A stretch of 64,000 nt of DNA, taken from contig CAMTYB010000001.1 in assembly GCA_947085855.1 (NCBI GenBank), forward strand, positions 341,788 to 405,787. Direction: 5' to 3'. A model generated the notes under the pieces. It was not told the DNA's origin and did not search any database. It was given only the letters and a program-made list of their open reading frames with translations. This document shows positions 59,113 to 62,886 of this stretch, piece after piece (within the stretch, counting starts at the first letter, position 1; each line of letters starts with the position of its first letter). A program made the translations under genes and the position numbers. The stretch comes from an uncultured Candidatus Saccharibacteria bacterium (GTDB lineage Bacteria > Patescibacteriota > Saccharimonadia > Saccharimonadales > 2-12-FULL-41-12).

Positions 59113-62100
59113 CTACAGAACAGGTGGCAAGCTCAAGACCTGATCGTACTTGCCGTTACTGCGACTACCCTCGGCCTTGAAGACCGGATTTGATAGGTAC
59201 AAATCAGGTGGCAAGCGGAAGGATTCGGCGGCATGGTCTTCATCTGGACCATTAAAGCGCTCTCTAACATAGGTTAGCGGTCGCAAGCCGGTACCTGGGT
59301 TTTCGGTATCAGGATAACATAGCCAAGCTTTGTTGGCGCCCCAAGCCTGAGCATCTCCGTATTCTTCGATGCCTGTACACTGTTTATCGGTAGGCGGAGC
59401 ACTATCCCACACCATGGTAAGGAAATTGGCGTCTCCAGTTGATGGCGGCCAGCATAGACGATCGTCAGCCCAGGCTTCTGCTGCTGGAGCATTCGGATTG
59501 TTAAACGACACACAGTTATAGCCGGCTGGCAAGGCACTACCGCCCCAGTTCCACACCAGGCCGAGAGGCTCGTCGTAGCAAAGCCAATTGTCTCGATAAT
59601 TATTCCAGATTGGTGCCCATGGTTCATTTATTTCTACGCAGTTATTTTTACCAGTGTTAGCTTGAGCCTGCGCTAATGTCTGACTACCAGAAGGACCGTT
59701 AGGTCGAGTGGCTGGACCGAACGTCCACACCATGTCATGCCCCGGATTAGCATCAACGGCAGCTTGCGGCAACTGGGCTACGCCTACGTCACTCAAGGTG
59801 CCATAGGTGCGAAGCAACCGAGTGTCTTGGGCTATAAACGAACCGTTAACTTTTAGCTTGGTGCGGCAATTATCAAAGACTTCGCCTGGGGCAAATAGTG
59901 AGCCGTCAGGTCGTGTACAGGTATAAATTCGACCACCTGTAGTGCCAGAAGTAGGTTGCGCCACGTATAGACCGTCAAGTTGAGTCACATTATTAGCAAT
60001 ATAGATGTTACCACGCACAACCAAGGAGAAGTTTGGAATGCTGTCGAGCGTCGCCCAGCCTCCGGCGCCAGAGCCGGCATATACGATATTACCGCTGATC
60101 AACACATCGCCTTCCACATAAACTGCATGCCTGACGTTATAGCCGCCGCCATTTGTGAGGTTGGTTTTATTAATGCCCAATGGTGACACCCACGACTGCT
60201 GATTATCTGCCAGTGTCGACAGATTAAGACTATTCACATTATCTGTCTTGGGCGTATCGATTTTTTTCGTTTCGTTAAAGTAATCGGTGACTGACCTAGT
60301 TGTAGCGTAGTTACCACCCATGCCCAATGCAGTGCTTGCAAAACTCAAACCAGACGGTGGCGATGGCGCTGTCGACCGTAAGCTAGCCGAAGTAAAGCCA
60401 GTCGACTGGTCGCTCGTCACCTGGATAAGCCCCAGCGCAAAGGCTGCAAACTCAACCCCAGAACCAGCGCCATACGTCGAACCTTCGGGCACATTAGTTG
60501 CCCGCTTTATATATGTCTTTATGTCGCCATTCGTACCCGCTCCTGGACTACCAAACTGACCACCAGCAAACACATCGCTACCGTAATAACGCACATATGG
60601 CCTATCCACCACTCGACCGCAGTTAGGGCCAGTGTCATCAGAGCTCAGACCAGCTGGATTTCGTATGTCGTCACCTGGTCCAATTTGACCAGTAGCCGGG
60701 TAGACGCTGATAACGGCACAGAACTGATCGCCAGCCCTAAAGTCACGCGGAATCGACGTATTTTCGTAGGTATCGTCATAAGTCACATCATTAAACCGGG
60801 GCAGTCCGTTATTATTAGTCGGCCCCTGCAGAGTGCCTTGGGTGACCCCTCCTCGTTTCCAGATTAAGCTTCGCGTCGAATTAGCCGGAACTGAATACTG
60901 CGGCGTCGAAGCCCACGGCTGCACCTCAGTCCGCTGATCAACGATAGTCTTGTAGTTTATCTCGGTCGGATCCTCGTAATCATTCGCCGTCACACTATTC
61001 ACCCGCGGTTCCAGCCGGAAATGCTGATAGGTATGAACCGTGGCATTACATGGCGGCCAGCCGATTGCAAACCTTCCATAGTAATCCGGGTAGATTGATA
61101 ATGTCCGACTATTAATATCGTCTGGCGCCGCCATACTAAAGGTTCTGGTTACAGAGTTGCCTCCCTGATCGGCCCGCGGCACATACTCCGCTCCACTACT
61201 AAAGAAGTCCAGTGGAGCAAAATCAAAGTCACCTCCTCCATCGCTACCGGTTAGCTGATTACCACCTACGCCATCAGGCAAAATAGATGCTCGCGGCCAA
61301 CCGGTATTCGTAATCGTCAGATTAAAGGTAAAGTTCTCACCACCAATCACGCCGCCCTCCGGCAGCCCTGGCGCCTCCAAAATATCTATACTACACGCCG
61401 CCTGGTAACAAGGCCCTGTTGCCCCGGACCTTTGATAAATATTCCATGGATGGAATGCCGGTGAATCGGTTGGATTACCAGCCGCATTTAAACCAATATT
61501 ATAGATATAAATATCATATTCCCAACCAATGTTAGACAAATCTTCGGGAACACCAACGTCTACACGATTATTTACCCTGCCATCAAATAAGGTAATCGCT
61601 CTGCCGTCTGCAATGCTGCGCGGCCCATCTTGTGGCCAGGCCCTTATAGTTACTCGCAATCCGCCTATAGGTCCTTTAGGATCGTTACGGTCGCTAACTC
61701 CACCTACAGATATTACATTGCAATTATGATTTTCAATAAAGCCTGTTGGAGGATAGTCCTGGCACGTGTTTCCTGGAGTCACCGCCGAAGCAGCATGGTG
61801 CCAATCTGCCATATCTGGATCCCATACATACAATCTGTATCCCTGTTCTGCCGTAAAGCTCGCGGAGCCACCCGCAGACCCTCCACTCGTCTGGGCCACC
61901 GTAACAGCCGAACCGCTTCCAGAAGGCGTGAAGTTGATAGGCCAAGTACTACTACCAGATACGCCTCTAATCTGATAGATCAGATCTGAACCAAGATGAT
62001 CTGCATCACTTACCCCACTTATCTGAAATGTCCTGTTATTACATACGTTGTCTATGCTAAAACTCCCGGATGGCCAGTTGTTTTCAATTTTCACACAAAA

Positions 62101-62886
62101 TCGTTCAGAGTTTTTTGCTAGGTGACTTGCCACAGCATCTTGATCACTTTCATAGGGCGTAGGGTTAGTTGGATCGGCATAAGGGTGGGCTCTCGGGAAA
62201 AGCCTCGTATCTCCATCAAATCTAACTGATATCCACATACGCATACAGACCTCTCCCGATCGACCTGCCTGGGTATTCACCCTAAAGTTGTATTCTGTGC
62301 CGCTCGAAGGATTCTCCCAATAGACCATACGTCCGCTATCCTGACAATGCACGGACCCTTCGGCACTCGAAGGGTCCCAACCAAAAGGACTATTGTCCGC
62401 TCCGCCGGCAGATGTATCCCCAAAAATCACGCCGGGATCATAGCCAATTGTATTTGGACACGGTGTAGTAACACCGCCATTGCCAGGTACTATCATTCCT
62501 GATGCTCCGCTGCCTATCGGCGTCGTCAAATTGTCGCCGTCAATCGTAACAAATGCCAAGGTTCCTGGTAGTCCGTTGGCATTCGATGCTGGCTGGTTGC
62601 CGTTTCTTCGCGGTGAGTCAGATTGAGTAAAACCTAGCCTCATTGTAAAGGAAGATCCTGGCGTAACTCTTCCGCCGTTGGTGACATCGCTGCTCGTAAG
62701 GAAGGCGTTCTCGCGAAAACCTGGTCCTGTACAGTAGAAGAATCCATACGGAAATCGCGACTGGTAATCCCCGCAACCAGCTTGAGCTGTCTGAACAGAG
62801 AAAGCCCCTATCCCAACTGTTGCTAGAAGGCTGCATAATACAGCTATTTTTAGCTTTTTACTTTTTCTTAGTCTAAATACACCCAT
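59113..62886 (-). CDS. giant secreted protein (1257 aa) with C-terminal Cys/Trp triple repeat; candidate adhesin
   Basis: Signal peptide ending AQA. No TM segment or sorting signal. Three 22-aa repeats of form C-x(6-13)-W-x(3-4)-[WRA]-LC-[YW] at 59314-59640. Sits immediately upstream of pilM. Confidence 0.8.
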   Translation of the reverse strand: MGVFRLRKSKKLKIAVLCSLLATVGIGAFSVQTAQAGCGDYQSRFPYGFFYCTGPGFRENAFLTSSDVTNGGRVTPGSSFTMRLGFTQSDSPRRNGNQPASNANGLPGTLAFVTIDGDNLTTPIGSGASGMIVPGNGGVTTPCPNTIGYDPGVIFGDTSAGGADNSPFGWDPSSAEGSVHCQDSGRMVYWENPSSGTEYNFRVNTQAGRSGEVCMRMWISVRFDGDTRLFPRAHPYADPTNPTPYESDQDAVASHLAKNSERFCVKIENNWPSGSFSIDNVCNNRTFQISGVSDADHLGSDLIYQIRGVSGSSTWPINFTPSGSGSAVTVAQTSGGSAGGSASFTAEQGYRLYVWDPDMADWHHAASAVTPGNTCQDYPPTGFIENHNCNVISVGGVSDRNDPKGPIGGLRVTIRAWPQDGPRSIADGRAITLFDGRVNNRVDVGVPEDLSNIGWEYDIYIYNIGLNAAGNPTDSPAFHPWNIYQRSGATGPCYQAACSIDILEAPGLPEGGVIGGENFTFNLTITNTGWPRASILPDGVGGNQLTGSDGGGDFDFAPLDFFSSGAEYVPRADQGGNSVTRTFSMAAPDDINSRTLSIYPDYYGRFAIGWPPCNATVHTYQHFRLEPRVNSVTANDYEDPTEINYKTIVDQRTEVQPWASTPQYSVPANSTRSLIWKRGGVTQGTLQGPTNNNGLPRFNDVTYDDTYENTSIPRDFRAGDQFCAVISVYPATGQIGPGDDIRNPAGLSSDDTGPNCGRVVDRPYVRYYGSDVFAGGQFGSPGAGTNGDIKTYIKRATNVPEGSTYGAGSGVEFAAFALGLIQVTSDQSTGFTSASLRSTAPSPPSGLSFASTALGMGGNYATTRSVTDYFNETKKIDTPKTDNVNSLNLSTLADNQQSWVSPLGINKTNLTNGGGYNVRHAVYVEGDVLISGNIVYAGSGAGGWATLDSIPNFSLVVRGNIYIANNVTQLDGLYVAQPTSGTTGGRIYTCTRPDGSLFAPGEVFDNCRTKLKVNGSFIAQDTRLLRTYGTLSDVGVAQLPQAAVDANPGHDMVWTFGPATRPNGPSGSQTLAQAQANTGKNNCVEINEPWAPIWNNYRDNWLCYDEPLGLVWNWGGSALPAGYNCVSFNNPNAPAAEAWADDRLCWPPSTGDANFLTMVWDSAPPTDKQCTGIEEYGDAQAWGANKAWLCYPDTENPGTGLRPLTYVRERFNGPDEDHAAESFRLPPDLYLSNPVFKAEGSRSNGKYDQVLSLPPVL

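Follow-up and report, generated by a model that had tools for sequence, protein, structure and literature searches.

A large unnamed family of secreted Saccharibacteria proteins encoded beside pilM, with a possible accessory role at type IV pili

We analysed 64,000 nucleotides (nt) of DNA from an uncultured Candidatus Saccharibacteria bacterium (assembly GCA_947085855.1, contig CAMTYB010000001.1, positions 341,788 to 405,787), a stretch referred to here as the window. Directly upstream of pilM, at the head of a type IV pilus (T4P) locus, the window carries a gene for a secreted protein of 1257 amino acids (aa). The protein almost certainly belongs to a real, large family that has not been named. 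By analogy with known pilus accessories, we favour the reading that it is a Sec-exported non-pilin accessory of the Saccharibacteria pilus T4P-1, a non-homologous analogue of PilC/PilY1 whose C-terminal tail would dock to the pilus and whose N-terminal head would recognise a target. We give this reading a probability of roughly 0.45. It draws on a conserved protein body with a sharply conserved tail, a head that appears to be exchanged between relatives, and a nearly constant position of the gene beside pilM.

The family was delimited with an index-free HMMER scan of 1.84 billion cluster representatives, taken at 50% identity, which returned 2,218 proteins at E<=1e-3 and 356 at E<=1e-30. A word-indexed homology search gave 2 matches from the single protein (itself and one 73% relative) and 4 from the family profile. 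When the Cys/Trp repeat module described below was used alone, this search returned not even the self-match, a result that is uninformative and no sign of absence. The 1257-aa protein scored 934 bits against the family hidden Markov model (HMM) and carried every family motif as well as the tail. Family members were 650-1435 aa long. The loci recovered from species-representative genomes came almost all from metagenome-assembled genomes of Candidatus Saccharibacteria or Saccharimonadales, and a few were labelled more loosely. The window's own contig measures 0.82 Mb, a size that suits a genome of the candidate phyla radiation (CPR).

Members shared a layout of signal peptide or hydrophobic segment, variable N-terminal region, conserved body, a Cys/Trp module in a minority of them, and a C-terminal region that ends in the tail. 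The region common to the family, on which the HMMER matches centred, corresponds to aa ~487-1037 of the 1257-aa protein. The core motifs were, in order, RPYVRxYGxDVxAGG, GSGVEFAA, YVEGDVxI, IPSFxLxVKGNIYI, QLDGLYVAQ, IYTC and LxVNGxF...LRT, and the conserved residues of the family were mostly Gly, Cys and hydrophobic. Pfam gave no domain over the conserved region in 40 diverse members, and the family profile had no match among PDB sequences. Six of the 40 members matched SurA_N in Pfam, which is taken to be a match to the N-terminal hydrophobic segment. It is this conserved body, together with the C-terminal tail, that defines the family, and not the Cys/Trp repeats.

The last 13 residues of the protein, with the pattern G-x-Y-D-x-[IV]-x-x-L-P-P-[IV]-L-COOH, form the sharpest and most conserved short element of the family. 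The tail terminated 160 of 170 sequences. Conservation was 69% for G(-13), 81% for Y(-11), 66% for D(-10) and 69% for I(-8), and it rose towards the end to 95% for L(-5), 78% for P(-4), 100% for P(-3), 95% for I/V(-2) and 98% for L(-1). An AlphaFold2 model of aa 58-1257 was computed from an alignment of 58 sequences and had a mean predicted local distance difference test score (pLDDT) of 74.6. The model was all-β, with pLDDT 85-97 over much of aa ~487-1037 and a poorly defined head. Values fell below 50 for the last 17 residues (aa 1241-1257), so that the tail was disordered in the model of the monomer. When the whole model was compared with PDB and BFVD by Foldseek, the matches were exclusively generic chains of immunoglobulin (Ig), fibronectin type III or macroglobulin domains (TM-score 0.1-0.2); they seem, at the level of the model, to describe a stalk and not a function.

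Variation was concentrated at the other end of the protein. In a close relative (locus L001) whose Pil proteins are 89-99% identical to those of the window, the copy (P0002) was ~90% identical over aa 450-1257, and identity over aa 1-350 was 14-38%. At the DNA level, the alignment to this locus was continuous at 82.6% over 5.6 kb, from pilO to position 61644 (codon ~414), and nothing aligned upstream of that point. Several classes of head were found among the members, including an FPYGF type, a DMPxxLP/YINLT type, a WYGPNA type and many others. In P0153, a 687-aa protein from an ENA metagenome, a DUF6923 repeat domain (PF21959, E 4.6e-20) stands as the head on the family core, which on sequence is direct evidence of head swapping.

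The open reading frame (ORF) of 244 aa that precedes the gene also varies. It had no tblastn or blastp counterpart in any of 52 related loci, L001 included, and no Pfam or NCBIfam match. The preliminary description, which was made from the letters of the window, had called it a secreted ORFan. The ORF is indeed present and no homologue was found, but its start is probably M41; from there it begins with MARDIRGAFAGVALAAAFTGPAVGSAVA, followed by AEG, a predicted signal peptide as judged by eye. Homology stops abruptly inside the 1257-aa gene and the 244-aa ORF lacks a counterpart; one third of the gene, at its 5' end, and the ORF(s) ahead of it up to position 64000 therefore form a variable island on a conserved gene body. 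The island could have arisen by allelic replacement through recombination or by very fast divergence. Such a pattern is expected of a specificity determinant and is unusual for a part of a machine. Because they are the most variable part of the protein, the N-terminal ~400 aa are the likeliest specificity determinant, and not the C-terminus. A pilus-associated adhesin, as the preliminary description had suggested, is still the best reading, but the part to which it drew attention was the C-terminal end.

Linkage to pilus genes was examined with tblastn of the window's Pil proteins against the 52 recovered loci (23 from species-level genomes, 29 from metagenome contigs). The loci had been retrieved with exact peptide patterns taken from a core alignment of 4 sequences, and they sample the nearer relatives rather than the whole family. 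The pilM block lay directly downstream on the same strand in 18 of the 23 genome loci, and two more ended at a contig edge; 18 of the 21 with enough downstream sequence were pil-linked. Among metagenome loci with enough downstream sequence, pilM was directly downstream on the same strand in 24 of 25. The combined count was 42 of 46 informative loci, with the order pilM-N-O-B-T-C-pilin-pilD after the gene. The same arrangement upstream of pilM was found in L001. Homologues are very strongly linked to pilus genes, as the preliminary description had anticipated.

The gap to pilM, put earlier at 170 nt, measures 169 nt, and the protein does lie directly upstream. A candidate promoter had been placed in this spacer; the number of promoter-like sites (7 observed) did not depart from the expectation from shuffles (7.3), and the proposal was dropped. 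No terminator-like site was found on the minus strand of the spacer.

Features of the protein itself point to export. It begins with MGVFRLRKSKKLKIAVLCSLLATVGIGAFSVQTAQA, followed by G, in which a basic n-region precedes a hydrophobic core of ~20 aa with AQA at the end. This predicted signal peptide is the only hydrophobic segment in the protein, and an N-terminal hydrophobic segment was found in 128 of 151 family members. The ATG at 62886 is, judging from homologues, the right start of the gene, because the signal peptide and an FPYGF.C motif (aa 45-52) recur in them. It is backed by two independent assemblies (P0154, 1252 aa; P0002, 1249 aa) and by distant homologues. In the public NCBI record the product (P0001, 1127 aa) begins at M131, without aa 1-130 (62497-62886) and hence without the signal peptide and FPYGF.C; this product is probably truncated at its N-terminus. 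The protein contains 23 Cys in total, and the conserved Cys pairs imply that it would be extracytoplasmic.

Searches of Pfam (E<=1), NCBIfam and PDB sequences with the 1257-aa protein gave zero matches. It contains no LPXTG, the nearest sequence being NPGTG at aa 1196 without a transmembrane segment after it, and its C-terminus (...SLPPVL-COOH) has no hydrophobic segment. No S-layer homology (SLH) domain, transmembrane segment or lipobox was found in it. The prepilin N_methyl motif (PF07963, TIGR02532) had no match in the protein, while the real pilins of the locus did match. A secreted protein with cleavage after AQA, no transmembrane segment and no LPXTG had been described earlier, and the sequence features bear this out. 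Four identities were considered and rejected: a pilin (no prepilin signal), a sortase substrate (no LPXTG and no C-terminal transmembrane segment), an S-layer protein (23 Cys and no SLH domain) and a secretin of the PilQ/GspD type (no PF00263 in the protein or in 40 members).

These observations suggest the following arrangement. After cleavage of the signal peptide, the conserved C-terminal two-thirds would act as a presentation module made of β-sandwich domains, a solenoid-like core with putative conserved disulfide staples, and the C-terminal region. The C-terminal peptide, unstructured when alone, would attach to a component of the pilus system, most likely the minor-pilin complex at the tip (for example its PilX_N/GspK-like pilin, 46508-47599), and may do so by β-strand augmentation. 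An elongated chain of Ig-like domains would project the exchangeable head as the end that recognises the target, here a host cell. In this lineage the three-unit, putatively disulfide-stapled Cys/Trp module just before the tail may provide, with its variable loops, a second surface for ligand binding or stabilisation.

Several points weigh against such a role at the pilus. Three copies (L011, L012 and L022) were without pil genes within the flank read. The gene adjoins pilM, at a distance of ~11.5 kb from the genes for minor pilins, whereas the usual place of pilY1 is among such genes. A spacer of 41-177 nt always separates the gene from pilM, and co-transcription is thus not implied. The family tail is nearly invariant, whereas PilY1 plugs vary between systems. 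Because it is near-invariant and contains Pro-Pro, the tail would fit just as well as a signal for anchoring in the envelope or for sorting, and a terminal L-P-P-[IV]-L is a poor former of β-strands. In cultivated S. epibionticum (Southlakia epibionticum), whose T4P-1 is functional and essential, ychF takes the place directly before pilM and a gene of this kind is lacking there (PMC10633639). Pili can therefore be assembled in that strain without the protein.

The three unlinked copies (L011 8711-10891, L022 8789-10822, L012 1851-4991) encode proteins of 677-1046 aa with a signal peptide and an LPPxL tail. In L011 and L022 the neighbours examined, which also count against a pilus role, were housekeeping genes, namely uvrA and an exonuclease in the former and ligA, a Mur ligase, ddl and leuS in the latter. 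The three genes may be paralogues or relocated copies.

Some of these points would suit an envelope-anchored surface adhesin or host-recognition protein that acts off the pilus. Its body and tail would be fixed to the cell wall, S-layer or membrane, its head would bind the host, and its gene would lie beside pilM because two attachment functions are regulated together. A spacer before pilM in every locus and the existence of unlinked copies agree with this, as do a near-invariant tail, which resembles a generic signal for sorting or anchoring more closely than a co-evolving plug, and an Ig-like stalk of the kind typical of cell-surface adhesins. We nevertheless consider it unlikely. The protein has no known anchoring signal among LPXTG, SLH, transmembrane segment and lipobox, and the adjacency in 42 of 46 loci, with constant orientation and position and in homologues down to ~30% identity, is stronger than loose co-regulation predicts.

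The Cys/Trp module deserves separate treatment, since the preliminary description had drawn attention to it. Three Cys-framed units of 22 aa had been reported at 59314-59640, and they match these coordinates exactly. The pattern C-x19-C-[YW] did not occur three times by chance in any of 20,000 shuffles of the whole protein or 60,000 shuffles of the C-terminus only. A unit HMM built solely from 40 units of other homologues hit exactly these three sites (i-E 7e-6, 3e-6 and 4e-4) and had no match elsewhere in the protein or the window. The true repeat is longer than had been thought, at ~43 aa, and comprises a PhixW strand (Phi, hydrophobic), a linker and the Cys-framed hairpin, with the hairpin consensus C-V-N-I-N-E-P-A-D-P-x-x-x-W-G-D-N-Y-L-C.

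Across 15 module-bearing homologues (27-44% identity) the Cys and Trp positions were kept: the six Cys were invariant or nearly so, W1139 was invariant and W1182 nearly so. The Trp that was said to frame each unit is thus conserved between proteins but is out of strict register among the three units of the 1257-aa protein itself. The module was present in 17 of 149 sampled representatives (~11%), 16 with three units and one with six, and was inserted between the core and the C-terminal region. Between close relatives (P0154, ~94% identical, and P0002) it was 80% identical, against 93-99% elsewhere in the conserved part. The substitutions fell in loops and linkers, especially in the unit-3 loop, and the Cys and Trp never changed. 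The AlphaFold2 model of the module was confident (pLDDT 80-93) and placed each Cys in a short strand flanking a loop; the units are consistent with putative disulfide-stapled hairpins.

It had been proposed that the three units are disulfide-closed carbohydrate-binding loops, and such a lectin would be compatible with the favoured reading as a part of it. The module resembles ricin-B/β-trefoil lectins in its three tandem aromatic-rich units of ~43 aa with a putative disulfide in each and a copy number of 3 or 6, as in three-fold lectin folds. The invariant Cys and largely invariant Trp, a conserved acidic/amide motif (E-P-x-D-P...W-x-D-N-x-L-C), the concentration of substitutions in loops and the placing of the Cys in the model also fit. 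Unlike those lectins, the module contains no (QxW)3 motif. Foldseek of its model, one of the checks that the preliminary description had called for, found no neighbour in PDB (best E 3.2, probability <=0.03); the module profile matched no PDB sequence; and Pfam, run on 13 isolated modules, gave no consistent match and no ricin-type family at E<=10. That the repeat matched no named family agrees with the preliminary description, which could not assign it to one, and positive evidence for carbohydrate binding did not emerge. The module also adjoins the putative docking tail and not the distal end, and the consensus motif is degenerate in the 1257-aa protein itself. A lectin as the functional end is doubtful, and a ligand-binding role of some kind is plausible. 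Because it is absent from ~89% of members, the module cannot explain the conserved role of the family and is an optional accessory.

It is improbable that the protein serves the structure or assembly of the pilus machine in the CPR cell envelope, for example as a cap, a conduit or a 'cork' through the wall or S-layer in place of a secretin-associated element. The gene comes first in the pilMNO block, in the neighbourhood that pilP/pilQ occupy in diderms, and body and tail are highly conserved, as such a component would be. A hypervariable, exchangeable head is unexpected for a machine part, however, and the gene is missing at the S. epibionticum position although the pilus there is functional and essential; no Secretin or related Pfam domain was found, and unlinked paralogues exist. 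Least probable is a secreted cargo or enzyme exported with help from the pilus (in a type II secretion-like or type IVb pilus cargo-like manner) to act, for example, on the host cell wall: it would agree with a pil-linked, Sec-dependent non-pilin with a solenoid-like core and with the export of non-pilin cargo through tip pilins in type IVb systems, but neither in the protein nor in 40 members was a catalytic domain or motif recognised, the conserved residues are mostly Gly, Cys and hydrophobic, and the known cargo signal is N-terminal, not C-terminal.

Coordinates of the features are collected in Table 1. The pilus locus of the window and the essential T4P1 locus of S. epibionticum, SEML1_0104-0116, agree in the order of their 13 genes (PMC10633639 supplement). 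The window's PilX_N pilin occupies the position of SEML1_0116, which was classified as GspK-like by structure (PMC10633639). The 78-aa ORF between pilO and pilB recurs in L001, also at 78 aa, and in S. epibionticum as SEML1_0107 (228 bp), which was essential in transposon sequencing (PMC10633639); it is a small part of the T4P locus in Saccharibacteria that is conserved but has no name. A XerC-like recombinase after the last pilin gene is placed exactly as SEML1_0117 in S. epibionticum (PMC10633639) and reflects conserved synteny rather than the boundary of a mobile element.

Table 1. Features of the 1257-aa protein gene and of the adjoining type IV pilus locus (positions in the window).
Feature	Residues	Coordinates	Strand	Basis or remark
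Whole gene		59113..62886	(-)	1257-aa secreted non-pilin protein, member of unnamed Saccharibacteria family
Sec-type signal peptide (predicted)	aa 1-36	62779..62886	(-)	Ends ...TAQA before G; sole hydrophobic segment; kept in P0154 and P0002
Hypervariable N-terminal head	aa 37-414	61645..62778	(-)	β-rich, 'FPYGF.C' class; low identity to close relative
Conserved β-sandwich region	aa 415-756	60619..61644	(-)	Conserved Cys C493/C498, C613, C723/C756; AlphaFold2 pLDDT mostly 75-93; invariant or near-invariant columns
Most conserved family core	aa 757-1040	59767..60618	(-)	Alignments; short-strand, solenoid-like in model; AlphaFold2 pLDDT 84-97 for aa ~897-1037
Optional Cys/Trp module	aa 1050-1193	59308..59739	(-)	Three ~43-aa units, each ending in a Cys-framed hairpin
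Cys-framed unit 1	aa 1083-1104	59575-59640	(-)	CVEINEPWAPIWNNYRDNWLCY
Cys-framed unit 2	aa 1125-1146	59449-59514	(-)	CVSFNNPNAPAAEAWADDRLCW
Cys-framed unit 3	aa 1170-1191	59314-59379	(-)	CTGIEEYGDAQAWGANKAWLCY
Conserved C-terminal region	aa 1194-1257	59116..59307	(-)	In all family members; AAESF.L.PE.YL motif
Tail	last 13 aa	59116-59154	(-)	G-x-Y-D-x-[IV]-x-x-L-P-P-[IV]-L-COOH; family alignment of ends
Intergenic spacer, gene to pilM		58944..59112	(-)	169 nt; spacer 41-177 nt in 19 related loci
Upstream 244-aa ORF		62955..63689	(-)	Non-conserved; part of the variable island, as is the head
Type IV pilus locus, downstream		46508..58943	(-)	Pfam and NCBIfam
pilM		57903-58943	(-)	
pilN		57173-57910	(-)	
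pilO		56502-57173	(-)	
78-aa ORF		56264-56500	(-)	One transmembrane segment; between pilO and pilB
pilB		54419-56251	(-)	
pilT		53325-54392	(-)	
pilC		52070-53302	(-)	
Pilin		51390-51974	(-)	
pilD		50480-51316	(-)	
Four pilin-like genes		49505-50449, 48270-49517, 47596-48270, 46508-47599	(-)	46508-47599 is PilX_N
XerC-like tyrosine recombinase		45572-46504	(+)	After last pilin gene

One of the pilin-like ORFs (48270-49517, minus strand, 415 aa) contains two acidic double-disulfide repeats, CQNGINDDGDAHTDYPADPGC and CIDGQDNDSDTRTDYPDDPGC, and matched NCBIfam NF033662 at 24.8 bits, under the 41-bit cutoff. They may represent an insert, Ca2+-binding or adhesive, in a modular pilin. A kinship between them and the Cys/Trp unit was considered and dropped; NCBIfam found no family in the 1257-aa protein. 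Beyond the recombinase, a 762-aa ORF (43159-45447, minus strand) had a weak match to GDSL-like lipase/acylhydrolase (30.0 bits, under the 32.9-bit cutoff) and may encode another large envelope or secreted protein. A class A bacterial RNase P RNA (3756-4113, minus strand, 253.6 bits) and four tRNA genes (18682-18755, 21708-21780, 23055-23129 and 42382-42455) are ordinary chromosomal content.

Saccharibacteria are ultrasmall epibionts that recognise and bind host bacteria, and type IV pili are essential for this lifestyle (PMC10633639, PMC9894109, PMC11623550). A description of the gene was not found in the papers on Saccharibacteria pili PMC11623550 (TM7x), PMC9894109 (TM7i) and PMC10633639 (S. 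epibionticum), and the model strains from the mouth seem to be without it at this position. Because it is widespread, unannotated, pil-linked and PilY1-like in its logic, the family is a candidate host-specificity determinant of environmental Saccharibacteria and a candidate for a convergent mechanism of display at the pilus tip. We put forward tentatively, as a bolder step than an accessory role alone, that Saccharibacteria may have evolved their own non-pilin presenter at the pilus tip, of a fold unrelated to PilC/PilY1 and docked by a near-invariant C-terminal plug (Y-D-x-I-x-x-L-P-P-[IV]-L-COOH), in which a rapidly exchanging head sets host-cell specificity. If true, this would be a third way to functionalise the tip of a type IV pilus, beside PilY1 in diderms and modular pilins in monoderms, and it would give a genetic handle on the host range of uncultivated Saccharibacteria. 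Even if docking is wrong, a family that counts >2,000 clusters at 50% identity but is covered by neither a Pfam nor an NCBIfam model merits a name and a profile.

Two known ways of equipping a pilus can be compared with the family. Modular minor pilins, such as PilB/PilC of Streptococcus sanguinis and PilX1/PilX2 of Saccharibacteria, likewise hang diverse ligand-binding modules on the pilus, and PilX1/PilX2 are at present put forward as the adhesins of pili in Saccharibacteria (PMC11623550). Unlike these pilins, the 1257-aa protein begins with a signal peptide of the ordinary type, lacks the N_methyl motif and the pilin helix, and would need separate docking. In type IVb pilus systems, non-pilin cargo is exported via tip pilins by means of an N-terminal cargo signal (bioRxiv 10.64898/2026.09.18.752573).

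The closest parallel is PilC/PilY1 (IPR008707 / PF05567), the non-pilin adhesin at the tip of type IVa pili in diderms. It is very large, with a signal peptidase I (SPI) signal, a variable N-terminus and a conserved C-terminus (bioRxiv 10.64898/2026.09.18.752573). Its plug, the final ~12 residues, is disordered in AlphaFold monomers, binds the minor pilin PilK by β-strand augmentation and differs in sequence between systems (bioRxiv 10.64898/2026.09.18.752573). Monoderm type IVa pili are without PilC/PilY1, which is restricted to diderms, and use modular pilins (bioRxiv 10.64898/2026.09.18.752573). The family described here is similar in being a large non-pilin with a predicted Sec (SPI) signal, in setting a variable N-terminal region on a conserved C-terminal region, in a short C-terminal tail that is disordered in the AlphaFold monomer, and in a gene that stands at a T4P cluster, here in 42 of 46 loci. 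It differs in its body, which is made of β-sandwiches and a solenoid-like core, in its gene, which stands beside pilM and not among the minor pilins, and in its host lineage, which is CPR and not diderm. PilY1 was not among the top 50 Foldseek PDB matches of the AlphaFold2 model, and the β-propeller with its Ca2+ site (PF05567/IPR008707) had no match in the protein (E<=1) or in 40 members (E<=0.01). Because this β-propeller is missing, the family is not a member of PilC/PilY1; by analogy, it may work like one.

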